Shown piece by piece: positions 1,807 through 18,088 of a stretch of DNA of 64,000 bases; within the stretch, counting starts at the first letter, position 1, and every line of letters starts with the position of its first letter. Origin of the DNA: a phage; the NCBI GenBank assembly GCA_025823825.1, contig GCA_025823825.1_4720.1; one strand, given 5' to 3'. Made by a program: the position numbers and the translations under genes. The notes under the pieces are model-generated. The model made no database searches. It was not told where the DNA came from and worked only from the letters and a program-made list of their open reading frames with translations.

Positions 1807-1819
1807 GTAACAACTCCTT

Positions 1820-2698
1820 TTAAACCTGGGTCAGGTCGCCGCGACGTGAAACGAACTCTGATAACGCTCGGGTTGCTTCTTTGGATTCTTCAGCCATCGG
1901 GAAGTTTGCGGTAATAAGTTCTCGTAAGACGGGAATAATTTCATTATCTTCGAGATCAGAAGCTAAAGCGAATGCAATCAGTTCTTGGGTGTATGCATAC
2001 GGTTGCTGGCGTAATGTAGCCAACTGATTCCGACACTGCGCCATCAGCAAGTCTAGTGGAACCGCTATTGTACCCCCTTCATCAATATATTGGCTGAACA
2101 CCGGTGGGAACGCATCGCCGATTACACGAATTCGTCGACGAATATGATCCGGAATCAGGACGTTTTCTTCATCGACGACGTTTTCGCTATCTTTCTCCAG
2201 CTTCTTGGTCAGTACCTCTTGAATACGTGGAAGTAAGCTTGAATGTACGAAACTGATTAACGGTGTTACGTTAACAGCATCAACGCCGTAAATATGATGC
2301 GCGCATTCCGCCAGCGCTTCAGCTGTGGTGTAGTCTTCATCTTCAACGATAGCGAGTAGAAAAGCGGTATCGTCGTGTGTTTCCAGGTCTAATAACGTAG
2401 ACGCCAGTGCATGAAGATATTTCAGGCTATCCAGAGTTAGCTGTCCTTCGTTAATTCGGATCCCGAAGGCAAGCAATTGTTGTTTATAAAGTTCGATACA
2501 TCCGTTTGTTAAAATGATATCTAATTCGTTTAAATCGTATTGTTCCCCAGCACCTGATAACATCGTACTGCAGAACGTTTCCAGTTGTTCGCATTTAAAA
2601 TCTTGGTATAAACGATGCATGCAGTGCTGTAACAGCGTACGCCTTGTTTCAGGGATCTTACCTTCTAACAAAGCCAAGACGGAATCAATCATATCCAC
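1820..2698 (-). CDS. hypothetical protein (292 aa)
   Basis: Minus-strand ORF 14 nt upstream of 505..1806; no motif recognised. Confidence 0.6.
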   Translation of the reverse strand: MDMIDSVLALLEGKIPETRRTLLQHCMHRLYQDFKCEQLETFCSTMLSGAGEQYDLNELDIILTNGCIELYKQQLLAFGIRINEGQLTLDSLKYLHALASTLLDLETHDDTAFLLAIVEDEDYTTAEALAECAHHIYGVDAVNVTPLISFVHSSLLPRIQEVLTKKLEKDSENVVDEENVLIPDHIRRRIRVIGDAFPPVFSQYIDEGGTIAVPLDLLMAQCRNQLATLRQQPYAYTQELIAFALASDLEDNEIIPVLRELITANFPMAEESKEATRALSEFVSRRGDLTQV

Positions 2699-2788
2699 TC
2701 CGATGCGGTAAATGTCTACTAGCTCTCATAATCTATTGAAGAAACTACCGGCTTACGCCAACTTAGATTAATCAGGAGTAACCATCCC

Positions 2789-3262
2789 ATGCCAGTTTCA
2801 TCCAAACCAAGAAAAAAATCAGTAGGAAAACCGAAAGCTCAGGAAACAACAGCAATTCGTTGGGACGAGTTACGTGAACCTATCGAAAACTGCGAATTGT
2901 TATTGGGCACCCTGGGTGCGGCTATTTACCAAGCGACGCAGCCCTGTCGTTTACGATTAACCCAAAACAAACGTGATGAGTTCGTTGCGTTATCAACAAG
3001 CACGAATAAAGATCTGACCGAACTTCAAACCGAGTTGACGACGATCAAGAACTCCATTACGCCGATGTACGGTAAAGAAGTCGATGAACAAAGTATTCTG
3101 TTACAGTACAACTACGGGATGTCGTTAATGAACATCCTGGAACGCGCATCCGATATTCTGCGTCCTGACGTTGCACGCCTGAGCCAACTGCGTGTTGAAG
3201 GGATGGAGAACCAGATCCGATTCGCTAACAGTGTTAAATCTCAAGGAGCCACCGAAGCATGA
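2789..3262 (+). CDS. hypothetical protein (157 aa), basic N-terminus
   Basis: ATG preceded by AGGAGT; stop TGA overlaps the ATG of the next gene (ATGA). Confidence 0.6.
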   Translation: MPVSSKPRKKSVGKPKAQETTAIRWDELREPIENCELLLGTLGAAIYQATQPCRLRLTQNKRDEFVALSTSTNKDLTELQTELTTIKNSITPMYGKEVDEQSILLQYNYGMSLMNILERASDILRPDVARLSQLRVEGMENQIRFANSVKSQGATEA

Positions 3263-4944
3263 GCGAACAAGAAAAAGAAGTCGTGACGAATCAGGAAGCC
3301 ACCGAACGTTCAGAGTCGTCCGTTGAAACTACGATTCCGGCAAGTTCCGAGCCGGTTGGTTCCGCACAGCAGGAAAGTAAAGACGAAGTCAGCACGACTA
3401 AAGAAGATGTAGTGGCTCCAGAAGCAACCCGTGAAGAAGAACCATCACATCCACCGCTAATCGATTTCTCGAAGGCGACGATACGTTTCCAATGCGAAGA
3501 CATTCGTCCTAAGAGCCCGAAGAAAACAAAACGCCAGCCGTTGGTGTTACCGTTATATTCTCCGCGTGTACAGACAACGTATTACCGGGAATACATCAAC
3601 GAAGCAATGGATACCGTACAAGCCATTGTCGCTCAACGCGGTAAACCGACAGACGAACAGTTTGATAAATTCAGTAAAGCGGTGGTGCAATCGGTTGCTG
3701 ATGGACAATATCATCCGCGTGGTCCAGCTCACGATCGTGCGTTGGAACGTAAGGGCAGTCAGTGGACTAACGTGCCCGTAGACTCATCGGGTGTTGGTCG
3801 CGTTATTCCTGGCATCCCGCAACCGAACCATATTCCTGATGATGTCGAAGCGCCGCTGACAGGAACCGATGCGATCTATTTTGCCATCCGTAATACGAAA
3901 TCAGGTGCGCCTGCGGTAATGCCGTTATGGCATAGCGGTATTAAGCTGCAGTTTAATCCGCCGTCAAATGAACGTGTTGCAATTATGCACGAACGTATTG
4001 CTCGCGATAAAATCCTGGGTGGACGTGATAGTACCGGCTTCCTGTTTTCGGCAACCTCGATTATCACCATGAAGCACGCAATCGAATTAGCATTAGAATG
4101 CTGCTACATGGCCAACGTACCTAACCTGGATATACAGCGTTTGAAAGACATTATTCCGGTTACCGATGTTCCAGCGTTATTGTTGAACGTGTTGGTAACC
4201 ATGTATCCGTACGGATATCCTTACGTACAGACCTGCTATCAGAATCCAGAAACCTGCGACTATCGTGTCGAAGATACCGTAAGCTTTGCGAAACTCTATC
4301 AAGTTGACAACAGCGCAATAACCAAACGTATGCGACAGATCATGACCGAAGGTCCGGTCATGACAGATGAACTTTTGCGTGAGTATGCAAACGAACTGGG
4401 TGAAACAAACTCCCGTACGCTGGATCTGTCCGACAACGGTTCTGTTATCATTGAGCTTGAAGTACCGAAGATCTCACGACAAATCGCCATGGGCGAACGC
4501 TGGTTAAGCGATACCCTGGAAGATCTGCGTGATATTCTATCGCGTCCGTCAATGACCGAAGAAGAGCGTGATCGTGTTATTCGTGAACGTCAGTTCTATA
4601 GCTGGATGCGTCAGTATGATGCGTGGATCAAATCGATGCACGTGTCAGTAAACGGTACCATGCGTCGTGTAAGCGATGCGGATACAGCAACGGTATTAGC
4701 GCAGCTGTCTCGTGATAGCGATCTTCGTGAACGCTATATCGATGGGTTGATGCAATTCATCGGTGATTCGACGATTGCGCTTGCAGCAATGCCTGCCTGG
4801 AAATGTCCGAAATGTAATGCCGATATTGCTGACAATCTGCGTGACCAGAAATACTACGATCTGATTGCTTTGGATGTACCCCAGCTTTTTTTTACCCTAA
4901 ACTCCGTCCAATCTCTTCAGGAGGGGATGGACGCGGTATTCTAA
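3259..4944 (+). CDS. hypothetical protein (561 aa) with acidic, Ser/Thr/Glu-rich N-terminal ~70 aa
   Basis: ATG 3259 preceded by AAGGAG and coupled to upstream stop; T8 run near the 3' end, see findings. Confidence 0.7.
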   Translation: MSEQEKEVVTNQEATERSESSVETTIPASSEPVGSAQQESKDEVSTTKEDVVAPEATREEEPSHPPLIDFSKATIRFQCEDIRPKSPKKTKRQPLVLPLYSPRVQTTYYREYINEAMDTVQAIVAQRGKPTDEQFDKFSKAVVQSVADGQYHPRGPAHDRALERKGSQWTNVPVDSSGVGRVIPGIPQPNHIPDDVEAPLTGTDAIYFAIRNTKSGAPAVMPLWHSGIKLQFNPPSNERVAIMHERIARDKILGGRDSTGFLFSATSIITMKHAIELALECCYMANVPNLDIQRLKDIIPVTDVPALLLNVLVTMYPYGYPYVQTCYQNPETCDYRVEDTVSFAKLYQVDNSAITKRMRQIMTEGPVMTDELLREYANELGETNSRTLDLSDNGSVIIELEVPKISRQIAMGERWLSDTLEDLRDILSRPSMTEEERDRVIRERQFYSWMRQYDAWIKSMHVSVNGTMRRVSDADTATVLAQLSRDSDLRERYIDGLMQFIGDSTIALAAMPAWKCPKCNADIADNLRDQKYYDLIALDVPQLFFTLNSVQSLQEGMDAVF

Positions 4945-5366
4945 TCGATCCGCGATACGGGTTACATGACGGACAACTTGTTCGTAATGATGAAAAAATC
5001 TGGGAATTGCTGTTAGCGCGTAAAGGCGATGGTGGCATGAAACTGAACATCGAAATGGGTATTGCGTACGATACCATGTTTGGCTTGTACGATCGTGTTA
5101 ACGACTGGACGCCGTTGAAATGGGTTGCTCAGCACCCCGCTGAAGATCCCTGGGACAGATTAGGGATTAAGCCCTTAATCGAGGATTATGTTCGATTCGG
5201 TATTAAAGAGTTCATGACGTTGGATGCGTTTTTACAAGCACCGTATCCTTACGCGCAAACGGTACTCAAAATCGCACAAGACGAACTGCGGAAACGTAGT
5301 GCGGTACTGGACGACGATGAGGACAAGTTACGACGAGAAGAAGAACGTTTACGAAACGGAAAATAA
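4845..5366 (+). CDS. downstream frame reachable by -1 frameshift from 3259..4944 (or an independent ~110-aa ORF from ATG 5037)
   Basis: Frame is stop-free from 4845; ORF track starts it at a TTG (5007); first ATG is 5037. Confidence 0.35.
   Translation, partial: PEILRSDCFGCTPAFFYPKLRPISSGGDGRGILIDPRYGLHDGQLVRNDEKIWELLLARKGDGGMKLNIEMGIAYDTMFGLYDRVNDWTPLKWVAQHPAEDPWDRLGIKPLIEDYVRFGIKEFMTLDAFLQAPYPYAQTVLKIAQDELRKRSAVLDDDEDKLRREEERLRNGK
4886..4893 (+). other. T8 homopolymer / candidate -1 slippery site (T_TTT_TTT in the zero frame)
   Basis: Eight T at 4886-4893 inside the overlap between the 3259..4944 frame and the -1 frame open from 4845 to 5366. Confidence 0.5.
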
Positions 5367-5367
5367 A

Positions 5368-5877
5368 ATGGCGAGATTTACCAGTTTGATTGGGTTGGAT
5401 ATTTGGGAAACACCGGCTGACGTTCGGGTTATTCCTGTCAACACCGTCGGTGTGATGGGACGCGGTCTTGCCAAACAGGCAGCCGATCGCGTCCCCGGTC
5501 TTCTTGAAGCGTACCGTAAGCAATGTCAAGATGGGTTTAAGGTGGGCGAAGTCGTATCGTATCAACACGGCGATAACGATCAACTCACCTACGTGTTGTT
5601 TCCATCAAAATCGGATTGGCGTGAAAGAACACGACGCGAGTATATCGTTAACGGATTACTGGCGTTAAAAGCGTGGTTATTGGAGCTTCAGTTCGAAAGA
5701 GACGGCTTCTCATACCAGCGTCCGGCTGAACCGCTGATTGTCGCAATTCCTCCGGTTGGTTCTGGTTGCGGTAATATCGGTTATGGACAATCTGAAACAA
5801 TCCAGCCTCAATGGGTACGCGCACAAATCAAACAGTATCTTGCCACCGTACCGAACGTTCATTTCTACTTGTTCTAA
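5368..5877 (+). CDS. macro-like domain protein (putative ADP-ribose binding/processing)
   Basis: Real start ATG 5368 (MARFTSLIGLDIW...); motifs VIPVNTVGVMGRGLA and IVAIPPVGSGCGNIGY resemble macro-domain Gly-rich loops. Confidence 0.5.
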   Translation: MARFTSLIGLDIWETPADVRVIPVNTVGVMGRGLAKQAADRVPGLLEAYRKQCQDGFKVGEVVSYQHGDNDQLTYVLFPSKSDWRERTRREYIVNGLLALKAWLLELQFERDGFSYQRPAEPLIVAIPPVGSGCGNIGYGQSETIQPQWVRAQIKQYLATVPNVHFYLF

Positions 5878-5942
5878 CGCAAAGGTAACATAACCCTCCT
5901 CCTTCCCTCACGGGTTGGAGGAGGGCTTATGCTGTTATGCTA

Positions 5943-6317
5943 TTAATGTTCGTTCCAGATGGCATCTTCCGGTGGAACAATAGGATCTTTCTTCGGCATT
6001 GATGGCACTTCATGACGATGCTTACGGAACTGCCTATCAATAACCTCACGAAGCCGGTACGCGTCAACCCAGGTTGATTTATTGAACAGCTCCAACGTCA
6101 CAGTTAATCGTGTTCTTGACATTGAATAGCTTTTCTTCGCAATCAAATTGGGATAATTCAGTTGAGCGAACCACGCACGTATTTGTGCTTCGGTAAAAGC
6201 GATGCTGTAATAACTAAGTTTACCGTCATTAAAATCGTGCGCGTGGGTGTAACGTCCAGCGTAACGCCAGACAAGATGCACATTCAGATCGATCCATGGT
6301 GGGGTGGTATCAGCCAT
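5943..6317 (-). CDS. hypothetical protein (124 aa)
   Basis: Minus-strand ORF convergent with 5368..5877; no motif recognised. Confidence 0.5.
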   Translation of the reverse strand: MADTTPPWIDLNVHLVWRYAGRYTHAHDFNDGKLSYYSIAFTEAQIRAWFAQLNYPNLIAKKSYSMSRTRLTVTLELFNKSTWVDAYRLREVIDRQFRKHRHEVPSMPKKDPIVPPEDAIWNEH

Positions 6318-6326
6318 GTGTTACCC

Positions 6327-6896
6327 TCAACGATTCTTCATCACTTTACCCAGGCTTTCGATATTATCCCAAAAGCGATTTTTACTTGGCGCATCGCCGA
6401 CGATAACCGACATCAAATCGCGACGTTCACGACTGATGATGCCCTGTGATTTCCAGATCACCATCGTCCAGCAAGCAGCCAGAACGAACAGATGATTAAT
6501 ACTCGGTTTGGTTTGCGCGATGAACGCGAGCCATGCCCAGATACCGGTATATACTATCGTCACTAAAAAGAGCGAGATTGTTGCAACGACAACAACGAAG
6601 TTTTGGACAGCGGGTTGATTCGCGTTATCATGAATAGCGGTAAGATCAGGAAGGTTACCTTCAACTGAACTCGTTTCATCGATTTCCAATTCTTCGATTT
6701 CTTTTCGTGTGTCGGGAGCTAATCCGGCATCATCAAGATGCTTTTTTAACCGCTGTATACTTAATCGTTGACCGATAGGAATGTTGATGTTGTCGTAACT
6801 ATTAAGCGCATCAACCAGGGAGCGCCCGTCAACGAGAACCAAGCTCGCAGTACCCATTGTCTGCGGTTTTATTTTGTAAAGGTCTTTTACTTTCAT
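6327..6896 (-). CDS. membrane protein (C-terminal hydrophobic segments)
   Basis: Hydrophobic stretches VVVVATISLFLVTIVYTGIWAWLAFI and LFVLAACWTMVIW. Confidence 0.5.
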   Translation of the reverse strand: MKVKDLYKIKPQTMGTASLVLVDGRSLVDALNSYDNINIPIGQRLSIQRLKKHLDDAGLAPDTRKEIEELEIDETSSVEGNLPDLTAIHDNANQPAVQNFVVVVATISLFLVTIVYTGIWAWLAFIAQTKPSINHLFVLAACWTMVIWKSQGIISRERRDLMSVIVGDAPSKNRFWDNIESLGKVMKNR

Positions 6897-6917
6897 GTAG
6901 ACACCACCTCCAACGTG

Positions 6918-9530
6918 TTAAGCGTCTGGTGTAAAATCAAAAGGAATGTCCGTACGAATGATATCATAACGTTTTCCTAGGAAATAAAACTCTTCGGGAA
7001 CCTGGCCGGGAATAATGCTATCGCCGATGAACTGCGGATACGCCCAGATGTACTGAGTGAGTCCTTCGAACTTATCCAGGTTATTTGCGTGGTTACCCAT
7101 GATACGTTTCCAGAGTTCGCGTTTATACGGTGTTTTAACATCGAATCCATAAAGCGGTGCAAGATCTTCACCAGGAACAAATCCCAGGTAATAATGGATC
7201 TGACTAACCGGGAAACCAAGCGTATCTCGCGGAATGGTGATCGCTTGCTCAGCCTTGGTGACATGCGTTTCAATAATCCAGTCGTAGCACTCCGAATAGA
7301 ACCGATCGAATTTCTCTGGGTTATACCACGCTTTGGGAAGATTCAGTTTCTCCGTGAACGCGTTCGACATGATCGTCGGCAAGAACGGAAGAACGCCGGT
7401 TTTGATCTGCGTGTATTTCGATTTTACCCGGTTAACCAAATTCCAGCAACTGTATCCTAATTGGTCGTTACAAAACTCAACGTAGAGATCGTAGTCACCA
7501 CCGGATAACGGGTTGTTAATATCACCGATGTCTGCGGCGTATTTGTTGGGATATCGGTTATTGAAAGCCAGTTTGGTTTGGTAATCGTAGATACACGGTT
7601 TGTTGTTCGCTGTATTGATCCACCACCAGGGTTCACCTATTTGCACACAAATGTCCTGGACATGGGGGTAGATGATATCAGCAAACGCGGTTAACACGTC
7701 CCCTAACCACGCCATCGCCTGTTGGTTACATGGAGACAGCAACCAGGACGGTGGTGTATATCCGGTTGCGGCGATGTTTCCTTCCCAATCCTGCTGCGCC
7801 CACTCGAACGGGCATGCTGTACTCATCAATTCGTAACTTAAACTGATGGTGACAGAGAAATGGTGTTTTGCAGCATATGCGGCGAAAGCTTCATGCCACG
7901 CGATACAGGGTGGATTTAATACATCCGTGGTGTTCACCAGTAACTTACCCGCACTTGGCGTCCAGACAGTATCGTAGAAATGCGACATTCCAACATAATG
8001 CACTAATTCATCTTGATACCCCGCATAAACCAGGTTTTCAAATACGCGCTCCGGCGTGATGTTGTAATGGTCATCGTAAGCGGTTATCGCACGAAGTTCG
8101 TGTGGTGTACAATGATGGCGATTAACCGTCATTTCTTGATACACCCCATCGATAGGAAGAATCTCGAGGGTTAAACCGAGGTCGATTGGCGTTTCCAGAT
8201 AGGTCGTTTCAGTCGCATCTTCCTTATAATGTCGAGAACTCATGCTGAACATCAACGACGTTACCGATTCGAGTTCGATAGGCTCGTCAGCATAGAACCC
8301 CGCCATTGCGTCATTGAAATCGATCGTTACGATTGCGCTTCTACCGTCTTCAGAGACATCGGTGGCGTATCGGGTTAATGAGATATACTGACGGCTATCG
8401 TCTTTGTGTACGATGGTTAGAACCGGCGGGTTTTCGGTATCTGCAAAGTTACGCTGATCGCCAGTAAACGTGATCTTCGCTTTAAAGATCAAACCGAATA
8501 ACGACGTCATGGGATCATACGCAATACAACCGTGATCCAGCGTATCCGTTGTCCGCCATTCTATCCCGACCAACCCGTTAGCGGTATGGCATCGCATATA
8601 CGCATTAAGGACCATGTCTTCACTGACAACCGCGAAGTTCTCTGTTGACTGACCGTTGATAATCCAATACATCGGTTGCCAGAGGTTACGCGTACCTTTT
8701 GCGTAGCGGTAGGTTGGTGCGCCTTTAGGGTTGCCATTATTGAGATGGAATACGGCAGTACCTTGATAATGGTCGTTCGTATTAATCGGAACACTGTAAG
8801 CATCACCGAGATCCGTACGTTCGACCTTCGTGACTGTTGCGTTTTCAAATAACCCACGTAGCGCCGGTAAACCGATATCTTCAGGCGCGTTTTCTCGACG
8901 AATCGCATCCGCGATGCGGTGGGCTAAGGCAGGGTAAATGACCTCACCCTGCTGTAGGTTTGCAAGACCTACAAAGCGATCGGGGTCGATGCTAGCAATC
9001 AATAACTCGACATCACCCTTCGTTCTATCGTCGTTAAGATATTTCAGTCCGGTAAGGTCAAGATGCTGAATAAGCGACAACAGGTTGTATTTACGGTTTT
9101 CAACAGTTAGTACAAGATCGCCTGCCCAAACCAAACTTCCCTCATCCGCTGTTACTTTAACGGATTGTCGGCCTGTGGTAGACGTTGTTGTCGTTTTATT
9201 TAATTGTCCTTGTAGGAAGTCGGTTGCGAGGTCAAAGGCAATGCCGTAACGGTCAGCGACCGCTTGCATGATTTCACGTAACTGGGTATCTTCTTCAATG
9301 ATAATCTTGACAGGTATTCCCAAGAACGCTTTAGCGAGGTCTCGTTTAACCAACGAGACGAATACGGATTTGTAGTATCGACTTCCATCTTTCCCTTTAA
9401 AAAGAATGGAGGTTGTTTCGGGTGCCGATAGAACACGTGCAAATTCAACATCGTCGAAAGTAAGAGAAAGTCCGTTTTTCTCGTTGGTTAATCTTAGTAT
9501 TTCATTTTGCGCGGTTTCATGTAACTTCAT
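6918..9530 (-). CDS. tail fibre/tailspike-like protein (870 aa) with shared N-terminal module
   Basis: N-terminal ~170 aa paralogous to 15425..15952, 16108..17862 and 55648..57102; GAGG 8 nt upstream of ATG. Confidence 0.6.
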   Translation of the reverse strand: MKLHETAQNEILRLTNEKNGLSLTFDDVEFARVLSAPETTSILFKGKDGSRYYKSVFVSLVKRDLAKAFLGIPVKIIIEEDTQLREIMQAVADRYGIAFDLATDFLQGQLNKTTTTSTTGRQSVKVTADEGSLVWAGDLVLTVENRKYNLLSLIQHLDLTGLKYLNDDRTKGDVELLIASIDPDRFVGLANLQQGEVIYPALAHRIADAIRRENAPEDIGLPALRGLFENATVTKVERTDLGDAYSVPINTNDHYQGTAVFHLNNGNPKGAPTYRYAKGTRNLWQPMYWIINGQSTENFAVVSEDMVLNAYMRCHTANGLVGIEWRTTDTLDHGCIAYDPMTSLFGLIFKAKITFTGDQRNFADTENPPVLTIVHKDDSRQYISLTRYATDVSEDGRSAIVTIDFNDAMAGFYADEPIELESVTSLMFSMSSRHYKEDATETTYLETPIDLGLTLEILPIDGVYQEMTVNRHHCTPHELRAITAYDDHYNITPERVFENLVYAGYQDELVHYVGMSHFYDTVWTPSAGKLLVNTTDVLNPPCIAWHEAFAAYAAKHHFSVTISLSYELMSTACPFEWAQQDWEGNIAATGYTPPSWLLSPCNQQAMAWLGDVLTAFADIIYPHVQDICVQIGEPWWWINTANNKPCIYDYQTKLAFNNRYPNKYAADIGDINNPLSGGDYDLYVEFCNDQLGYSCWNLVNRVKSKYTQIKTGVLPFLPTIMSNAFTEKLNLPKAWYNPEKFDRFYSECYDWIIETHVTKAEQAITIPRDTLGFPVSQIHYYLGFVPGEDLAPLYGFDVKTPYKRELWKRIMGNHANNLDKFEGLTQYIWAYPQFIGDSIIPGQVPEEFYFLGKRYDIIRTDIPFDFTPDA

Positions 9531-9552
9531 TAAAAACCTCAGCCCTTTAGAA

Positions 9553-10194
9553 TTAGATGTACTGCTTACCGCCCACGAAGGAAGTTAACCAGTTCCCGCT
9601 GACGAGTTGTGATACCCAACCTGGAACGGCTCTACCATTCTGGCTCATGATGTTACCACACCAACCAGGGAATCCGGGACGGATGTAATAGAAAGTTAAA
9701 TTGTAGAGATGGCAATTCCATACCGCAACGTTATGTTTACCAGAAACCGCTTTAAAGATAAACGCGACAGGTAACGGAGACGATAACAATTCGGTCACAG
9801 GGACGGCTGACCAGTTCGCATTCGCGTTCCATGGTTGCCAGGTATGGCTACGCGAGTCACCGTTAACGTTACCGTTGCTACCGCGTCCGCCCGCGTTCCA
9901 CCAAAGCGATGGACTCATGTTCTTAAGTGAGGTAAATTGCTGTGGTGGAATATTCGGAATGATAACAGGGTTGGTACCTTGTCCGTGTTTCTTTTCTTTT
10001 GCGTTCACATAGCCGTTTATCGATTCCAGGTATTTGGTACCAGGATAATTGTTCTGGACTTGTGTCGCAATATCACGAACATCGAACGTCCAGCAGATCA
10101 TGGTGTTGTAGTAAGCATCGGTGTTGTCGTACCATGCGTTACCATCTTGTAAACGTGCGCCACTATTCGGTGTTTTATCTGTGTTTATAGCCAT
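9553..10194 (-). CDS. hypothetical protein, paralogue of 10306..10971 (possible fibre-associated adhesin)
   Basis: C-terminus RPGFPGWCGNIMSQNGRAVPGWVSQLVSGNWLTSFVGGKQYI nearly identical to that of 10306..10971. Confidence 0.55.
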   Translation of the reverse strand: MAINTDKTPNSGARLQDGNAWYDNTDAYYNTMICWTFDVRDIATQVQNNYPGTKYLESINGYVNAKEKKHGQGTNPVIIPNIPPQQFTSLKNMSPSLWWNAGGRGSNGNVNGDSRSHTWQPWNANANWSAVPVTELLSSPLPVAFIFKAVSGKHNVAVWNCHLYNLTFYYIRPGFPGWCGNIMSQNGRAVPGWVSQLVSGNWLTSFVGGKQYI

Positions 10195-10305
10195 AGTGTT
10201 GTCCTATACTGCGATGATTGAGATATCGGATGCCGGATGTGTGTTGCCATCAGGTGGTACGTACAGAAACACCCACAGATAAAACAGTAGCTTCTCTAAC
10301 TTCAA

Positions 10306-10971
10306 TTAAATTGAAGTTAGATATTGTTTACCTCCAACAAACGACGTTAACCAATTACCTGAAACAAGTTGCGATGCCCAGCCAGGCACTGCCCTACCGT
10401 TCTGGCTCATCACGTTACCTGCCCATCCCGGAAAACCCGGTCGGAAAATATATACTTGAATATGTGTTAAAGCGTTATCATTACCACTGCCAACAGCAAC
10501 GTTACGACTCCCAGATGACGGGAAATATTCTTTTAAGAACAGAGGATCGGTTGCTAATAAAGATGCGGGCCAAGGGTTCGCGGATGCATCAACATCGAAT
10601 TCGGTCCATCGCCATTTACGTCCCGTGTCGAACCATGTCGATGTACCACCACCCCTCACGGCAAGATTGCGCGCATCACGGACATTATAAATTGATTCGA
10701 TGTTACGCCATCCACCTTTTGCAGCGTTTGCTGCATAGCAAACCGCATTACCACCATTCTTCTTCTCGTAAACGGTTCGTTTGATATGAACACGGTCGAT
10801 GAACGCTTCACCGTATTTGTTGACGAGCGTTTGTGCGATATCACGAAGATCGTGCATGTGAAAAGCGATGTCTTCGTTATGGAACCATGTTGTCTGGTTC
10901 CAGACGGTACCGTTTGGTTCGGCACACATCGATCGGATATTGTTGCGTTGATTAATCGCGATAAAACCCAT
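10306..10971 (-). CDS. hypothetical protein, paralogue of 9553..10194
   Basis: Shared C-terminal block; start set at ATG 10971 (MGFIAINQ...) just after a terminator hairpin and T-rich tract. Confidence 0.55.
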   Translation of the reverse strand: MGFIAINQRNNIRSMCAEPNGTVWNQTTWFHNEDIAFHMHDLRDIAQTLVNKYGEAFIDRVHIKRTVYEKKNGGNAVCYAANAAKGGWRNIESIYNVRDARNLAVRGGGTSTWFDTGRKWRWTEFDVDASANPWPASLLATDPLFLKEYFPSSGSRNVAVGSGNDNALTHIQVYIFRPGFPGWAGNVMSQNGRAVPGWASQLVSGNWLTSFVGGKQYLTSI

Positions 10972-11026
10972 TGTATACCTCGTTCCTATTCTCAAAAAGG
11001 AAATTTCATACGATGACGCCATAGCA

Positions 11027-11056
11027 GCTCCTCCTTCCCTTACGGGTTGGAGGAGC
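11027..11056 (-). terminator. intrinsic terminator-like stem-loop (GCTCCTCC...GGAGGAGC)
   Basis: 8-bp GC-rich stem followed on the minus strand by a T-rich tract, downstream of 11065..11571. Confidence 0.5.
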
Positions 11057-11064
11057 ATACTTAA

Positions 11065-11571
11065 TTACTCGCTGATAACCTCAACGGAATTGGGATCAGC
11101 GATCATCGCACGGTCAGTAGAACAATTGAAGAAGACCATGCCGACACCATCGCCGTTCGAGTTCAGGGTTGAACTTACGTAAGACAGGGTTGGTTTATTC
11201 ATGCGGTAGAAGCGTTCGCTGGTAGCGGTATTGAACCCCAGATCAACGTAGTCTTTCACCGTGGTATACAACTGTGTGGATTCGAAAACGGTTACCGGAG
11301 AGTCGACGGTAAACTGACTACCTTCATCCACAACCAGAACTTTATCGTTCCAGATTTCAGTGGTTGAAAACTTCGGTTTCCAATGTTCGAATTCCTGGGT
11401 TGCTCCCCAGCAGGAATACACAGCGAGATTGCTGTTCTTCTCAACCGGTTTCAATCCCACCAGTTGTGTCAGGTCTTTATCCAGGTTCGGTAAGCCTTCC
11501 AGCGTAGCGCACCCACCCAGAGAAAGTACCATCAACATACCAAGAATAATCGCGCAGAGTTTCTTCATCAT
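11065..11571 (-). CDS. putative lipoprotein
   Basis: N-terminus MMKKLCAIILGMLMVLSLGGC has a signal peptide with lipobox-like LGGC. Confidence 0.6.
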   Translation of the reverse strand: MMKKLCAIILGMLMVLSLGGCATLEGLPNLDKDLTQLVGLKPVEKNSNLAVYSCWGATQEFEHWKPKFSTTEIWNDKVLVVDEGSQFTVDSPVTVFESTQLYTTVKDYVDLGFNTATSERFYRMNKPTLSYVSSTLNSNGDGVGMVFFNCSTDRAMIADPNSVEVISE

Positions 11572-11619
11572 TAGATTTCCTTATGTGTTAACGGAAGTGA
11601 CTTCCATAAGGATTGATGA

Positions 11620-12009
11620 TTACTTTTTGAGCGCTTTAAGTTCTTCTTCCAACGCTTCCACTTTTGCCGTAAGCTTCTGTACTTGTTTGATTAATGGAAC
11701 CACCAAACGTTCGTACATAACACCTTCAGCGACGAGTCCGTTAGAAGAAACGATAGCGGGGTCATCTTCTTCGGTTGCATCACGCCAGTGCACGTACTGC
11801 GGTGCGATCTCACCAACCTCTTCAGCAATCAACCCATACCAACCCCAATCCTTGTTGTCTGCTTCACATGTGGAACGATACCAAACAGGACGCATCTCCA
11901 ATACTTTATCCGCTTGTTCATCCGTGATATTCTCGATATCTTTCTTATAGCGACGCGACGACGTTGAACGAAACACATTGTTGATCCCAGAAACAGGACT
12001 GATATACAT
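11620..12009 (-). CDS. S74-type intramolecular chaperone domain protein (free-standing)
   Basis: SRRYKKDIENI...WYGLIAEEVGEIAPQYV...VMYERLVVPLIKQVQKLTAKVEALEEELKALKK matches the layout of the C-terminal chaperone domain of endosialidase-type fibres. Confidence 0.6.
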   Translation of the reverse strand: MYISPVSGINNVFRSTSSRRYKKDIENITDEQADKVLEMRPVWYRSTCEADNKDWGWYGLIAEEVGEIAPQYVHWRDATEEDDPAIVSSNGLVAEGVMYERLVVPLIKQVQKLTAKVEALEEELKALKK

Positions 12010-12058
12010 GTTAGCCCCGCTGGTTGTAGTGCTAATGTCCCATACCGCAAATCCGCCG

Positions 12059-15000
12059 TTACTCCCATTTTTTTACGATCAATGTGTTGGCAATAATGTC
12101 CAGGTTATTGTCGTAACCGGTTAATTGTCTTTCCGTTACATAACTGGATAGATTGACCGAGTAGTTCTTACTGTTATAACAACGACGCCATCCTGGGCTG
12201 TTGGTACTGCCATTATAGTTGTCGTAGCTATAAATGAACTCGGAGTTGGTTTTCGCACCACTGACGGAAGACGTGGTTGCGGTCGTAACACGGATGGTAT
12301 AGTTTGTCATCCCGAAGCTAACGACCTCGATAACAGCACCAGCCAGAGGGATAATACCGCACTTGGTTTCACTGTCTGGGATGTATGCGCTGTCGGCAGC
12401 TGCGAAGGAGCAACGTGCGACCCAGGCGCGGGTATTGAATGCACCTTGGTTTTGCAACAACGTGATAAACGATGAGGTCGTAATCGAGCTGTTATTATCA
12501 CCGGTGATCAACCAGCCGGTCGGGCATGCGGTTGCGCCAACGTTTTTCGCTGTTAACGTGATGTTCTGCGATCCGTCGAAGGCTACGCCACTGATAGTGC
12601 GCGCAGTCTGCAGTTTCGTCGCCGTTGCTGCGTTCCCTGATGTGTTCTGGTTCCCTGCGGCGTTAACACCCGGCAGATTGATATTCGCACTACCGTCGAA
12701 AGACACCCCACCAATGGTGCGGGCGGTTTTCAGTTTTGTCGCCGTGGCGGCATTACCGGTCGTGTCTTGGTTACCGGTGGTGTTTACCCCAGGTAGGTTG
12801 ATATTGGCCGTTCCGTTAAATGAAACACCACCAATCGTCCGTGCCGTTTGCAACTTCGTTGCGGATGCCGCATTCCCCGTGGTGTTTTGGTTACCTGTTG
12901 TATTCACACCTGGGATACTATCCTTAGATGTGTAGATCTGTGCCCATTCCGACCAGTTCGCATCTGATGCATCACGACGCGAACGTAGGTAAGCTGGAGC
13001 GTGTGCGCCTGAAGTACCTGACCATCCAATAAGGATCTCACCTTCACCTACTGCGGTTGCTCCTTTAAGATGAACAACGTTACCGTAGGCTGTAGGGTAT
13101 CCGTTATTGTACGCTTCATACATCTGGATGCCCGTATTGCTGCCCTGGGTCGCATTAGCTAAAGCGGTGACTCGTCCCATGGAAGCGAGCACGTTAATGC
13201 TAAAGCTAATATCAGTTGTACCATCAAAGGCGACCCCATTAATCTTCCGTGCTGTTTGGAGTTTCGTGGCAGTAGCCGCATTACCAGAGGTACTCTGATT
13301 ACCTGCTTTGTTCACGCCTGGTAAATCAATGTTGGCGGTTCCATCAAAGGACACACCCCCTATGGTTCTCGCCGTCTGAAGTTTTGTTGCTGAACCGGCG
13401 TTTCCGGAAGTGCTTTGATTACCCGCCGCGTTAACACCCGGTAGGTTAATGCTAGCAGAACCATCAAAAGAAACACCACCGATTGTGACAGCCGTTTTCA
13501 ATTTCGTGGCTGTCGCAGCGTTACCCGTTGTATTCTGATTGCCAGCTGCATTGACGCCAGGTAATGCGATATCAGCTGTGCCATCGAACGCGACACCGCC
13601 TATTTTACGGGCGGTTTGTAGCTTGGTTGCTGTAGCGGCATTACCGCTGGTATTTTGCGTACCGGCTTTATTTACACCGGGAAGATCGATGTTAGCAGAA
13701 CCGTCGAAGCTGACGCCACCTATTGTTCTTGCGGTAGCGAGTTTAGTTGCTGTGGTTGCAGCATTACCAGCCTTTAACCATTCGCCCCATGGGCCATCCA
13801 CGCCGTTCCATGAAGCTGTTAAACTACGTACGTAAATATTTCCTGTACGTACGGTGTAACGCTGTGTTCCACCGAATTGCCCAGCTGGGAGCACTTCGAT
13901 GTAACCTACTGCGTTTGCTTCAGGGAAATTGTGGGCAGCATCAGCATTCGTTGACGTTTGTTTGGACCAAATACCCACAGACGCTTCAACCGGACCGTAG
14001 GTATTTAGATTCGCATCGGTGGGAAGCTGTCCTCGGAAACGTCGGAATAATGAAGCTGTTAACCCCAACGTTGTTTGCATCCCTTCAATGCTTGACTGCG
14101 ATAAAAGCGCCCGAGCTGTCGACGTGATAGCCGCTAAAGCAACCTTATCCGTACCGGTAAAATACGGGAATTTGTTTGCTGAAGTTGCTAAACCTGAAAG
14201 GGCGGTCAGTAATGCGTTAAGGGGTTGTTTCCCAGCCAGCGCGTTAGTTACTGTTGTTGCGAAATTAGGGTCGTTGCCTAAAGCTTGAGCCAGCTCATTA
14301 AGCGTATTTAGCGCTTCTGGCGACGAGTCGATCAGTGATGCGATAGCACGCATCACAAATTCCGTGTTGGCGATCTGTTGACTGCTATCGTTATCTGCAG
14401 CCGTAGGTGCTGCTGGGATACCGGTGAACACAGGGTTATTAAGATCTGCCTTGAGAGCGATGAGACGTCTAAGCGCTTCGACATCGACTTTCAGGTTTTC
14501 CCATCCGACGAGATAACCATCACCGGTTGTATGATAACGGTTGTACCAAAAATCACCATTGACACCGAAATAGAATATTCCTTTCTCTTCGTATTGTGGG
14601 CCGGAACTGTTCCGTGATGAGCTAATGTATTTTATTTCGATAAGGCCGTCGAATACCACTCCTGGGATGATTTTATTATTTCCAGCTGGCTGTGATACTT
14701 GGTACATCCCCGGGGTTGCGGCTTTAACCCACGTTAAGAATTCTGTTACTCCGGCGCTACCACTGAAATTCTTAACGTCGGTAAGTATCGCCCCATAACC
14801 GAACATACCGGGTAGAGCAACTCGTCCGCTGGTACGGTCACGAATATTTGATGCGACGACAGGCAGCTGTTTACGAACATTGTTAACCGCCTTAGGTGTG
14901 GCCGATTTTGTCTCGTCATCGCTATCGATGGCGTTGCTCAGGATGGTCAGTCCTCGAGTATTTGTGGTCGCATCAGGAAGAAACGCGTTATCCAACACCT

Positions 15001-15418
15001 TAAGTTGTACAGCGCTCGTGTTACTAACAACGAGATACATCTGACAGTTAAGAACGCTGGATGCACCTTCAGTAGGCACCGGCTTATATCTTTCCGGTGC
15101 GCTGCAAACAGCGATCAGAACACCCTGATCGTCATACAGACCGATTTCACGTACCCAGAATCCACCTTGGTTTACAGGAATAATACCCTCAACAATAATC
15201 CTGGTTGTGTCATCCGTATCGACACGGATATTAGCAACTTCCCCACGATAAACTTCGTGTACGAGCGCTGTTTGACCAACAGCCGGTGTCGGTATCGACC
15301 CGTTACCATCGCCAACAGCAAAATGTGTGATTTTTAGTTTCTCGCCACCAGGAAGTAGTGCGGCGGCGATACGTTCAGCGCCTTTATCGGTAATGACCGT
15401 TTTATATGTTGTACTCAT
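12059..15418 (-). CDS. long tail fibre protein, P2 gpH-like N-terminus with tandem fibre repeats
   Basis: N-terminus TVITDKGAERIAAALLPGGEKLKITHFAVGDGNGSIPTPAVGQTALVHEVYRGEV and block IANTEFVMRAIASLIDSSPEALNTLNELAQALGNDPNFATT resemble P2 gpH; about ten repeats of ...GNAATATKLQTARTIGGVSFDGSANIDLPGVN... Confidence 0.85.
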   Translation of the reverse strand: MSTTYKTVITDKGAERIAAALLPGGEKLKITHFAVGDGNGSIPTPAVGQTALVHEVYRGEVANIRVDTDDTTRIIVEGIIPVNQGGFWVREIGLYDDQGVLIAVCSAPERYKPVPTEGASSVLNCQMYLVVSNTSAVQLKVLDNAFLPDATTNTRGLTILSNAIDSDDETKSATPKAVNNVRKQLPVVASNIRDRTSGRVALPGMFGYGAILTDVKNFSGSAGVTEFLTWVKAATPGMYQVSQPAGNNKIIPGVVFDGLIEIKYISSSRNSSGPQYEEKGIFYFGVNGDFWYNRYHTTGDGYLVGWENLKVDVEALRRLIALKADLNNPVFTGIPAAPTAADNDSSQQIANTEFVMRAIASLIDSSPEALNTLNELAQALGNDPNFATTVTNALAGKQPLNALLTALSGLATSANKFPYFTGTDKVALAAITSTARALLSQSSIEGMQTTLGLTASLFRRFRGQLPTDANLNTYGPVEASVGIWSKQTSTNADAAHNFPEANAVGYIEVLPAGQFGGTQRYTVRTGNIYVRSLTASWNGVDGPWGEWLKAGNAATTATKLATARTIGGVSFDGSANIDLPGVNKAGTQNTSGNAATATKLQTARKIGGVAFDGTADIALPGVNAAGNQNTTGNAATATKLKTAVTIGGVSFDGSASINLPGVNAAGNQSTSGNAGSATKLQTARTIGGVSFDGTANIDLPGVNKAGNQSTSGNAATATKLQTARKINGVAFDGTTDISFSINVLASMGRVTALANATQGSNTGIQMYEAYNNGYPTAYGNVVHLKGATAVGEGEILIGWSGTSGAHAPAYLRSRRDASDANWSEWAQIYTSKDSIPGVNTTGNQNTTGNAASATKLQTARTIGGVSFNGTANINLPGVNTTGNQDTTGNAATATKLKTARTIGGVSFDGSANINLPGVNAAGNQNTSGNAATATKLQTARTISGVAFDGSQNITLTAKNVGATACPTGWLITGDNNSSITTSSFITLLQNQGAFNTRAWVARCSFAAADSAYIPDSETKCGIIPLAGAVIEVVSFGMTNYTIRVTTATTSSVSGAKTNSEFIYSYDNYNGSTNSPGWRRCYNSKNYSVNLSSYVTERQLTGYDNNLDIIANTLIVKKWE
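12580..13790 (-). repeat. in-frame tandem repeats (~28-40 aa units) within the tail fibre gene, two blocks
   Basis: Repeated ATKLQTAR(T/K)IGGVxFDG motif in the translation; antisense shadow ORFs also repetitive; coordinates approximate. Confidence 0.6.
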
Positions 15419-16107: not shown

Positions 16108-17862
16108 TTATGCTGCTACATACCCAGGCCAACGTTCTCTTGGCCAGTTTGTTGCGCCCTGTCCAACGTTGTCCTTACCAGAAGTTACATTACTTACATC
16201 CCAACCACTAAGATCCTGGTTAAATGCGGTGTTGTTACGCATCATGAGGTCGATATTACGTAATGATTGGGTATTCCAGCCGGAAATGTCTTGGTTGAAT
16301 GCCGTGTTGTAAGCAAACATGTTAACAACGTTTTGTAATTTTGAAGTGTTCCAGCCGCTAATATCGCCATTGAACTGCATGTTCGAGAACATACTGCTAG
16401 CATCGATAAGACTATCTGTTTTCCAGTTAACCAGCTTGTTCTCATCAAGTGCGTTGCAACTACTGAACATGTAACTCATGTTGTTAACTTTGGATACATC
16501 CCATTTATCTAACCCGTTACCAACGAACTCGTAACAAGCTTGGAACATCCAGCTCATGTCGGTAACCTGGCACACATTCCATTTGCTAAAGTCGAGGTTG
16601 AGTTTTGCGCATCCGGAGAAAGTTTTATACATACTGGTGATACGACTAACATCCCATTCTTGAATGTTAGGATCATTAAGTATAGATAAGAATTGGAACA
16701 ATCCGTCTAACGACGTCCATTTCTCTGGAATACGGTTTGGTACTGTACGGAGCGATGAAAGGTTATTGGTTGACGGAGAGCGGAACATACCGTTATCCCA
16801 ATTTACGATTTCCGTAATGTTGTACCCACGGATCGTTTGGCGTCCATTACCATTATACACAGACCCTGTTGCAGTTATTGTATATTCGTTTGTATCAGCA
16901 TACGTATATTCAGCCTGTGTAGGCCACTCACCTATTACATCCCTATTCCCATCACCCCAGTCAATGGAAATATCTATCCAACCATCAAGATCTAGGGTAA
17001 CGGTCCCGCCATTGGTCTTCAGGATGTATTTACCTGCATTGTCGGTATAATAACAAACAATCATCGCACCGTACAGGTTACCAATTTGCCAATCATCCTT
17101 TTGAGTTACCGCGATTTGTGCTGTACCACGCTGTAAGAAAAGTACCGTACGGTTCTCGTCAGTCTGTAGTGCGGTTAGTGCTTGAGTCTTATCATCGTCG
17201 GTAATTTCACCGGCTTCCATTAAAGCACTTAACATTCTTTCGAAGTACTCGATAGGCAACTGAGGTCCTACCGACATATCAACTGATGGAACAGTGAGAT
17301 CATCCAATGCTGCTGCCGTTGCGAGGACTAATGATCCCTTGGCGGTGTCTGTTTCTTGGAGGTAACGCAGTCCCGTAATCTGGTACGCTTGAATGATTGT
17401 AATCAGATCCAGTGTATCGTTAATGACCTGTACTTGTAAATGTCCAGACCAAACATAGCTGCTTTCAGCAATCGGTAATTCGACCGACTGAATACCCGAC
17501 GTTTCAAAACTGATCTTCTTATTAAGATCGGCTTCCAGGAAATCAACAGCTAGGTCGAAATTTATACCGTACTTCTCAGCGATGGAATCTACAATGTTCC
17601 TGAAAGCAACATCGGTACTTACGATGAAACGTAACGGGATCCCGGTGAACGCGTTGGCAATATCTCGACGAACATACGTGAGCGACTGCTCGAAGAAATA
17701 AGGACTGTTATCTCCAGGTTTGATGGTTACCTGGCATACTTCAGGATGTTCAGCTGGAATGAAAGATTCGAATTTAACGTCGGTTTCCTTCAACGATAGC
17801 ATGTTCTTCCGGTTTACCAACGCCAGAAGATCAGCTTTCCACCCAGGATAAACTGTAGACAT
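16108..17862 (-). CDS. tail fibre-like protein with shared N-terminal module and C-terminal BspA-like (DUF285-type) repeats
   Basis: Start ATG 17862 (MSTVYPGWKADLLALVNRKN) with GGAG upstream; C-terminal repeats WDVSxVxxMxxMFxxxxxFNQDISGWN. Confidence 0.65.
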   Translation of the reverse strand: MSTVYPGWKADLLALVNRKNMLSLKETDVKFESFIPAEHPEVCQVTIKPGDNSPYFFEQSLTYVRRDIANAFTGIPLRFIVSTDVAFRNIVDSIAEKYGINFDLAVDFLEADLNKKISFETSGIQSVELPIAESSYVWSGHLQVQVINDTLDLITIIQAYQITGLRYLQETDTAKGSLVLATAAALDDLTVPSVDMSVGPQLPIEYFERMLSALMEAGEITDDDKTQALTALQTDENRTVLFLQRGTAQIAVTQKDDWQIGNLYGAMIVCYYTDNAGKYILKTNGGTVTLDLDGWIDISIDWGDGNRDVIGEWPTQAEYTYADTNEYTITATGSVYNGNGRQTIRGYNITEIVNWDNGMFRSPSTNNLSSLRTVPNRIPEKWTSLDGLFQFLSILNDPNIQEWDVSRITSMYKTFSGCAKLNLDFSKWNVCQVTDMSWMFQACYEFVGNGLDKWDVSKVNNMSYMFSSCNALDENKLVNWKTDSLIDASSMFSNMQFNGDISGWNTSKLQNVVNMFAYNTAFNQDISGWNTQSLRNIDLMMRNNTAFNQDLSGWDVSNVTSGKDNVGQGATNWPRERWPGYVAA

Positions 17863-18088
17863 AAGCACTCCAATCATGGGGGCGAACGCCCCCCATCAGT
17901 TAAATGATCGTTTACGTCGCGTAAGGGTAATATAATTGCTGTGAGCCATATCAGAAGTTCACAACATTCTGAATCATAAGGTTACGTCGTTGGAAACAAA
18001 CCGATACAGATTCTTCATAGAACATTGAGATGATGGAAACCTAATTCGTACCATGAAAGCCGCAATAAAAAAAAGAAAAATAGGAAAA

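Follow-up and report, generated by a model that had tools for sequence, protein, structure and literature searches.

The 64-kb stretch of phage DNA analyzed here (the window) carries, within a tail fiber gene cluster, a predicted lipoprotein gene followed by two paralogous genes, termed B and A, whose products share a conserved C-terminal block and differ in the remainder. Judged by sequence, the window phage is a Goslar-like chimallivirus, closely related to the nucleus-forming jumbo phage Escherichia phage Goslar: positions 879-10246 and 10968-11608 are 97.4 and 96.1% identical to Goslar, respectively, and positions 10247-10967 have no counterpart there. Every gene of the locus is on the minus strand, and the order of transcription is the fiber, an open reading frame for a Peptidase_S74 domain, the lipoprotein, B, A, and a DUF7941 protein. 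The Goslar equivalents are, in order, gp090, gp089, gp088, gp087, and gp086, with gp089 being a Caudo_TAP protein in place of the S74 domain. A sequence-only reading of the window had picked out the open reading frames of A, B, and the lipoprotein and had placed the last directly upstream; all three are present, and the placement is correct in the direction of transcription. The features in question are the following.

11065..11571, minus strand: lipoprotein of 168 amino acids, predicted to be located in the outer membrane, ortholog of Goslar gp088 and member of phrog_9559 (from the open reading frame and lipobox)
10972..11064, minus strand: conserved intergenic element between the lipoprotein gene and slot 1, with a strong hairpin inside (from alignment and folding)
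10306..10971, minus strand: paralog B, 221 amino acids, slot 1, not in Goslar (from the open reading frame and a GAGG ribosome-binding site)
10318..10443, minus strand: conserved C-terminal block of B
9553..10194, minus strand: paralog A, 213 amino acids, ortholog of Goslar gp087, with a predicted beta-jelly-roll (residues ~1-172) and the C-terminal block
9556..9681, minus strand: C-terminal block of A, 42 residues, Gly/Trp-rich, RPGFPGWCGNIMSQNGRAVPGWVSQLVSGNWLTSFVGGKQYI

Paralogs A and B and their C-terminal block

A is 97.7% identical to Goslar gp087, and its start is matched by the published N-terminal peptide of that protein (AISTDKTPNSGAR). The longest open reading frame of B would begin at 11058 and encode 250 amino acids; the start most likely lies at 10971, behind a GAGG ribosome-binding site, because 10972..11058 is a 100% conserved non-coding element with an in-frame stop in Goslar and because the gene calls in the related genome L006 and for protein P0004 start at MGF. 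The long form was rejected on the further ground that its 29 extra codons overlie the hairpin and a stretch that is invariant at every codon position in four phages. At the other end of the gene, the TAA stop of B is replaced by a Lys codon in L006 and in P0004, where the frame runs 34 codons further and includes the hydrophobic stretch LLFYLWVFLYV.

BLASTP aligns A with B at E = 5e-35 and 35% identity overall. By region, identity amounts to 35 of 164 positions (21%) ahead of the block and 38 of 42 (90%) inside it (RPGFPGW..GGKQY(I/L)), so that the near-identical C-terminus and differing N-terminus described from the sequence are borne out; A and B hold the only copies of the block in the window. 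A reading of this pattern as a recent duplication with exchanged N-termini did not survive codon-level comparison. Just 12 of the 42 block codons are identical, four of them Met or Trp codons, and 26 of the 38 conserved residues are encoded by different synonymous codons; nonsynonymous divergence (dN) is 0.09, while synonymous divergence (dS) is saturated and not computable. Recent duplication or gene conversion was therefore rejected as the origin of the identical block. The motif P.FPGW...QNG.AVPGW.SQL..GNWL..F.GGK.YL is the best-conserved stretch across the whole family, and between the Goslar clade and the clade of Serratia phage PCH45 and Salmonella phage SPLA10 the block retains 53% identity, against 18% for the remainder. 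On these alignments, the block is an old family signature under strong purifying selection, and it is kept in PCH45-like phages.

Distribution and predicted fold of the family

An exhaustive hidden Markov model search of 1.84 billion representative proteins (clusters) returned 11 family members, and tblastn against 50,697 phage records found the family only in Goslar, PCH45, and SPLA10. A and B matched nothing in Pfam, PHROGs, NCBIfam, PADLOC, or PDB sequences (Pfam and NCBIfam at E <= 1); the Caudo_TAP tail-fiber assembly profile, searched in Pfam and PHROGs, is matched by Goslar gp089 and by a 194-amino acid protein of the related genome L005 and by neither paralog. In five PCH45/SPLA10-like genomes the single member always lies 30-60 nucleotides (nt) after a 575-amino acid fiber ending in Peptidase_S74, and in Goslar-like phages a member directly follows the fiber/lipoprotein. 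Distant members, of 316-370 amino acids, have an additional domain of ~130 residues past the block. A fourth variant (218 amino acids, ~40% identity to A) occupies 6001-6657 of the chimallivirus-like contig L014, between a thymidylate synthase/phrog_10766 pair and small open reading frames; no other family member was found away from tail genes. The thymidylate synthase of this contig is 43% identical to SPN3US-group phage enzymes.

An AlphaFold2 model of A built on a 15-sequence alignment (predicted local distance difference test (pLDDT) 80.9, predicted template modeling score 0.76) comprises a beta-sandwich over residues ~1-172 plus the final strand, with the block as a lower-confidence excursion (pLDDT 56-69, the lowest of the model). 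The predicted fold is a beta-jelly-roll of the kind seen in lectins and carbohydrate-binding modules (CBMs). A and B share a predicted beta-sandwich with the beta-jelly-roll CBMs (for example, the chondroitin-sulfate CBM 8wab, the CBM96 alginate module 7vbo, CBM15, and CBM6/35/36) at only 6-11% identity, and unlike CBMs they are free-standing small proteins in which a 42-residue Gly/Trp-rich segment is inserted before the last strand. Unlike the curated CBM and DNRLRE families, they have no Pfam or NCBIfam membership, PDB sequence match, or significant Foldseek match.

In their setting, A and B also recall T4/T2 gp38 and Mu/P2 Tfa, being small, encoded directly downstream of the fiber, variable between relatives, and divided into a conserved and a variable part. 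The conserved part, which serves in attachment, lies at the N-terminus in adhesins such as T4 gp38, whereas in A and B the polarity is reversed; the paralogs also lack homology to gp38 or Tfa, and their attachment to a fiber is a proposal. Moreover, unlike the gp38/Tfa setting, Goslar already has a Caudo_TAP Tfa (gp089) and the window fiber has an S74 chaperone.

A two-slot cassette

Among close relatives, family members occupy one or both of two slots between the lipoprotein gene and gp086/gp085:

Window: slot 1, B; slot 2, A
L006: slot 1, B (97.7% identical) with the stop replaced and 34 extra codons; slot 2, A' (75% identity to A)
L005: slot 1, an intact third variant, C; slot 2, A, starting with GTG and interrupted at codon 98 by a TGG-to-TGA nonsense mutation
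Goslar and two IMG/VR genomes: slot 1, a C-type gene reduced to its first 35 nt; slot 2, A
L015: slot 1, B' (70%) only, followed directly by gp085; slot 2, none

The defective A of L005 (2441-3079) is otherwise 94% identical, and the L005 pattern suggests that one intact copy is enough. Insertion of B in the window phage was considered and set aside in favor of a deletion in Goslar, because Goslar keeps 35 nt of a slot-1 gene identical to L005 variant C. Where the lipoprotein is at least 89% identical, the genome always has one or more intact family members, and a member directly follows the lipoprotein gene; two lineages with a 48% identical lipoprotein have no family member adjoining it. Because relatives swap, delete, or inactivate one copy and always retain one intact, the slots amount to a partly redundant exchangeable cassette.

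The lipoprotein

The lipoprotein begins with an n-region (MMKK) and a 14-residue hydrophobic core, followed by the lipobox LGGC at residues 18-21, with Cys21 as the lipobox cysteine and Ala at +2. The assignment as a lipoprotein, made from this lipobox in the sequence-only reading, is a solid prediction: the PROSITE-type pattern (L[GSAT]GC) is present in nine of nine family members, none of which has Asp at +2. Besides the lipobox Cys, each of the nine homologs has exactly two more Cys, at aligned positions (Cys54 and Cys150 here), and all three are invariant; the nine include SPN3US gp159 (LLAGC) and Erwinia phage Kwan gp173. The only profile matched in Pfam, PHROGs, NCBIfam, PADLOC, and PDB sequences was phrog_9559; a DUF2846 label carried by one Erwinia phage homolog was discarded, as Pfam does not reproduce it.

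The protein is 98.2% identical to Goslar gp088, and the family occurs in 55 phage records with E. coli, Salmonella, Erwinia, and Proteus as hosts. Among these records only Goslar has the A/B family, which is missing from more than 50 Erwinia/Salmonella jumbo phages with the lipoprotein, and PCH45/SPLA10-like phages have the A/B family and lack the lipoprotein; because either family occurs without the other, the three genes do not form an obligate module. All Goslar-related lineages, down to 48% identity, have the lipoprotein gene inside the fiber/DUF7941 cluster, and in SPN3US and Kwan the homolog lies among tail-associated genes. In all Goslar-like loci it adjoins fiber/chaperone and DUF7941 genes, and it does not co-vary with the fiber tip or the paralog allele: the protein is 94-98% identical across genomes with A, A' (75%), B, C, or combinations of these, and with two fiber tips.

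This constancy bears on an alternative in which the three genes form one module, with A and B as interchangeable tips or adhesins of the long tail fiber and the lipoprotein as a dedicated Llp-type blocker of their receptor. The genes are adjacent, co-oriented, and downstream of the fiber; a lipoprotein of at least 89% identity is directly followed by a family member in every Goslar-like genome, even in L015; and the predicted fold of A and B is lectin-like, all as such a module would have it. It is nevertheless unlikely, since the lipoprotein stays constant across differing paralog alleles and two fiber tips, both families occur together in no group but that of Goslar, homology to Llp is lacking, the conserved part of A and B is C-terminal and not N-terminal as in gp38-type adhesins, and Goslar-like and PCH45-like phages have no fiber segment in common.

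The comparison with T5 Llp, which is encoded beside the receptor-binding protein gene oad (pb5) and blocks FhuA, gives a mixed result. Both proteins have a lipobox, no Asp at +2, a Cys pair in the mature part, and a gene near host-recognition genes. Unlike Llp, the mature lipoprotein has 147 amino acids (61 in Llp), its gene is co-oriented with late fiber genes whereas llp is divergently transcribed, and it is conserved in phages of E. coli, Salmonella, Erwinia, and Proteus and unchanged when the fiber tip changes; hhalign aligns only 17 columns of the two, comprising signal peptide and lipobox, at a probability of 31%. A T5 Llp-like receptor-masking module had been suggested for this locus at the outset. 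The analogy draws on the lipoprotein signal and on the proximity to fiber genes; an obligate module is not supported, given that homology to Llp ends with the signal peptide, the sequence is constant, and the three genes are separable. By analogy, an Llp-like role of the lipoprotein by itself is possible. The literature on lipoproteins or superinfection exclusion in chimalliviruses yielded nothing specific.

A different function at the outer membrane would be that of a lysis or envelope-remodeling factor, either spanin-like or destabilizing the outer membrane. A predicted outer-membrane lipoprotein that is apparently late would suit this purpose, and in SPN3US and Kwan the homolog lies 1-1.5 kb from the endolysin gene. 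However, o-spanins are short and Pro-rich, whereas the mature part here has 147 residues and an intramolecular Cys pair; there is no C-terminal transmembrane segment, no i-spanin-like gene is adjacent or embedded, and the neighbors are a fiber chaperone and the paralogs. In Goslar the endolysin (gp024) is ~80 kb away, and the window contains no homolog of the SPN3US endolysin or of its neighbors, on which ground a link to a lysis cassette in the window was rejected. A lysis function is accordingly rather improbable.

Evidence from virion preparations

Goslar gp087 and gp088 are the direct orthologs of A and the lipoprotein (Goslar being without the second paralog), and both have been detected by mass spectrometry. 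In a preprint on the Goslar virion, purified virions were subjected to label-free mass spectrometry and copy numbers were estimated (Basu et al., bioRxiv 10.64898/2026.04.21.720040). gp088 was put at ~737 copies per virion, with 78% coverage and 20 peptides, making it the sixth most abundant unmodeled protein; estimates for the other proteins of the locus were ~52 copies for gp089 (Tfa), ~43 for the gp090 fiber, ~19 for gp087 (four peptides), and ~4.5 for gp086 (bioRxiv 10.64898/2026.04.21.720040). The same tables list thymidylate synthase at ~20 copies, and according to the authors chimallin and PhuZ were also in the preparation (bioRxiv 10.64898/2026.04.21.720040). Peptides of OmpA, OmpF, and OmpC are numerous in Table S4, where their areas range from 5e4 to 2e5, compared with 5.3e5 for the top peptide of gp088 and ~2e3 for those of Lpp (bioRxiv 10.64898/2026.04.21.720040). 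gp88 is described as a high-copy virion-associated protein of unknown function, its lipoprotein signal being unmentioned; gp87 is undiscussed, and the peripheral baseplate and fibers are unresolved in the cryo-electron microscopy (cryo-EM) maps (bioRxiv 10.64898/2026.04.21.720040).

The reported coverage of gp088, 77.84%, equals 130 of 167 residues, and would correspond to detection of residues 32-167 apart from the tripeptides FYR and MNK, and of none of residues 1-31, which hold the signal peptide and the Cys-bearing N-terminal peptide. The richness of the preparation in OmpA, OmpF, and OmpC fits an outer-membrane lipoprotein, and we infer that gp088 is exported, abundant, and bound to the outer membrane, and that it co-purifies with virions on membrane fragments. 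In SPN3US, the homolog gp159 is not in the text or tables of the virion proteome, where its neighbor gp158 is found. The copy estimates of unmodeled proteins may more generally include proteins carried on outer membrane, gp088 being the obvious candidate.

The same data could be taken at face value, with the lipoprotein as a true high-copy virion component that is bound to the DUF7941 fiber cloud or delivered to the next host. Its ~737 copies per virion-equivalent at 78% coverage would be explained directly, as would a top peptide area more than 100-fold above those of the Lpp peptides (~2e3). Yet all members have a signal peptide, a lipobox, and a disulfide pair, implying that the protein leaves the cytoplasm, the site of virion assembly; host porins and OmpA abound in this preparation, the SPN3US homolog is not in the virion proteome, and the Goslar structure shows no density for the protein. 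We consider packaging of the lipoprotein highly improbable.

Possible roles in adsorption and at the cell surface

Glycan binding by A and B, a docking role of the block, an outer-membrane location of the lipoprotein, and masking of a receptor are inferred from the observations above, and we combine them, tentatively and as an explanation whose overall probability falls a little short of even, in a scheme in which A and B are accessory glycan-binding proteins of the tail periphery and the lipoprotein has a separate activity, exerted at the outer membrane of the infected cell. A and B, which would have diverged long ago within a small family confined to a few jumbo phages of Enterobacterales, would be associated with the virion at low copy number. 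Their variable jelly roll of ~170 residues would set specificity, and the invariant block, poorly ordered in the monomer model, would be the interface by which they dock with a conserved partner at the tail periphery; with lower likelihood, the block might itself be the ligand site. The two slots would form a partly redundant cassette that is exchanged by recombination within a hypervariable island. The lipoprotein would be a substrate of Sec, Lgt, and LspA that is sent by the Lol pathway to the outer membrane, reaching high levels late in infection, and the abundance of gp088 in virion preparations would reflect co-purifying outer-membrane material and not packaging. Its most probable task would be at the cell surface, where it would mask or alter an envelope component and so keep progeny and superinfecting phage from being lost to infected cells and debris; it would then be Llp-like in logic and not in ancestry. 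Since the lipoprotein is constant while fiber tip and paralog alleles change, any masked target should be a conserved envelope component recognized by a conserved part of the adsorption apparatus.

That A and B are exchangeable adhesins had been proposed from the sequence, and the adhesin role has moderate support: the genes lie in a fiber/DUF7941 island, near-identical phages swap, lose, or inactivate alleles at the slots, the model predicts a lectin/CBM-like fold, and gp087 is a low-copy protein in virion mass spectrometry. The companion suggestion that they are fiber tips finds nothing in the analysis that points to it.

Several observations weigh against this scheme. The link of A and B to adsorption is putative, and the CBM assignment of the model is at fold level only, jelly rolls being generic; Foldseek returned no PDB match at E <= 1e-3. 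For gp087, genuine low-copy presence in the tail is possible, yet its signal only equals that of thymidylate synthase, an obvious contaminant. The L014 variant lies in a non-tail context, and in L015 the lipoprotein-paralog pair is kept with no gp086 or gp090 within the ~6 kb flanks on each side. Candidate docking partners fell away: the A/B profile aligned with Goslar gp22 and gp23 at an hhalign probability of 0.1% and Pfam found no DUF7941 in A or B, so that the block as a mimic of a DUF7941 docking linker was rejected for want of similarity to linkers, and the fibers of PCH45 and of the Goslar type have no detectable sequence similarity, which eliminated a common fiber segment as the docking site. 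As to the lipoprotein, the preprint lists gp88 as a high-copy virion-associated protein, the AlphaFold2 model (pLDDT 34.7) is too poor to give a structural clue, and the sequence stays constant while the fiber tip switches between the P1 gpS/Tfa type and the S74 type, although a receptor-specific mask paired with that tip should co-vary with it. T5 llp is an early gene, whereas the lipoprotein gene appears to be co-oriented with late structural genes.

Some of these points would be accommodated if A and B were non-virion, intracellular proteins, serving in assembly or scaffolding of the peripheral baseplate or fibers or in host takeover or anti-defense, and if their detection by mass spectrometry were carry-over. 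gp087, with four peptides and ~19 copies, does stand at contaminant level beside thymidylate synthase (~20), chimallin, and PhuZ; the L014 member has a non-structural context; and phages exist in which one copy is missing or interrupted by a nonsense mutation. Neither protein is in the Goslar cryo-EM model, but this absence is uninformative because the peripheral baseplate and fibers are unresolved in the maps. On the other side, the position right after fiber genes is kept in two distant clades, the fold is typical of accessory domains of tail proteins, and, as fibers ending in S74 carry their own chaperone, a second one would be unexpected. An intracellular role is thus doubtful, if still deserving some weight.

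A more speculative link between the genes is self-recognition, in which the lipoprotein would flag infected cells, debris, and vesicles at about the level of OmpA, and virion-borne A and B, or their fiber cloud, would sense this flag or be blocked by it. This would explain both the persistence of the pair in every close Goslar relative and the co-purification of gp088 at hundreds of copies, but we regard it as a long shot. In a still bolder variant, the lipoprotein would be carried on virions and help to form the lipid vesicle that receives chimallivirus DNA.

The functions proposed here, accessory lectin-like adhesins and a lipoprotein encoded beside receptor-binding genes, are already known from other phages; of what is new here, most useful are the recognition of Goslar gp88 as a lipoprotein, the pattern of selection on the block, and the rule that the cassette retains one intact copy. 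Host recognition by nucleus-forming jumbo phages is little understood, and the locus gives two concrete handles on it, both of which bear on the engineering of jumbo phage host range. One is a naturally exchangeable two-slot lectin-like cassette whose invariant tail segment should identify the docking site. The other is a conserved lipoprotein recently reported among the most abundant proteins of virion preparations without comment on its signal peptide. If it is an outer-membrane protein, the published copy-number list needs correcting, and chimalliviruses would also gain a candidate factor for superinfection exclusion or protection from debris that is unrelated to Llp and Cor.

The surrounding host-recognition island

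The following further features belong to the context of the paralogs and the lipoprotein gene.

12059..15418, minus strand: long tail fiber, 1119 amino acids, with a Phage_tail_fib N-terminus, ortholog of Goslar gp090 with a different tip (from the open reading frame, Pfam, and alignment with Goslar)
11620..12009, minus strand: Peptidase_S74 intramolecular-chaperone domain of the fiber, as a separate open reading frame in another frame (Pfam E = 1.6e-9)
10295..10321, no strand: perfect palindrome with a 12-bp stem, centered on the TAA stop of B
6918..9530, minus strand: protein of 870 amino acids with DUF7941, NCTSP_N, and a TIM barrel, ortholog of Goslar gp086 (from Pfam and the Goslar preprint), predicted to be a carbohydrate-binding or -hydrolyzing host-recognition protein

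Fiber and S74 domain are one fused open reading frame in L006. In the window, the fiber reading frame ends in 'LIVKKWE*' (stop at 12061..12059), close to a run of seven A at 12068..12074, and deletion of one A from this run restores exactly the fused frame of L006 (...VVKNGSNGGFAVWDISTTTSGANMYI...); the split could reflect an error in sequencing the homopolymer, a genuine frameshift, or slippage. Compared with Goslar (L001 10016-11074), the fiber tip and chaperone at 11608-12537 are exchanged, with the flanking genes still 96-97% identical. The window tip has an S74 intramolecular chaperone, and the Goslar tip is P1 gpS-like and accompanied by the Caudo_TAP protein gp089; from the alignment, this is a clear host-range cassette exchange. 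At 16108-17877, an open reading frame of 589 amino acids, 86% identical to a DUF7941 + DUF285 protein of L006, replaces Goslar gp092 (a 'tail protein' of 1198 amino acids) and gp093, and is a second cassette difference within the same island. The island is a hypervariable host-recognition region bounded by the conserved lipoprotein gene and the gp085 homolog.

The hairpin of the intergenic element lies right after the stop codon of the lipoprotein gene, at about 11061..11023, and the 96-nt stretch that contains it has a folding energy of -30.6 kcal/mol (z = -3.3). The 14-nt interior of the hairpin (AACCCGTAAGGGAA) is exactly reverse-complemented in L006 at ~9135-9175 (TTCCCTTACGGGTT), a hairpin-loop inversion. 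The ~55 nt past the hairpin, with a TATG motif, are identical in the window, Goslar, L005, and L006, and together the hairpin and this conserved stretch may constitute a terminator plus promoter.

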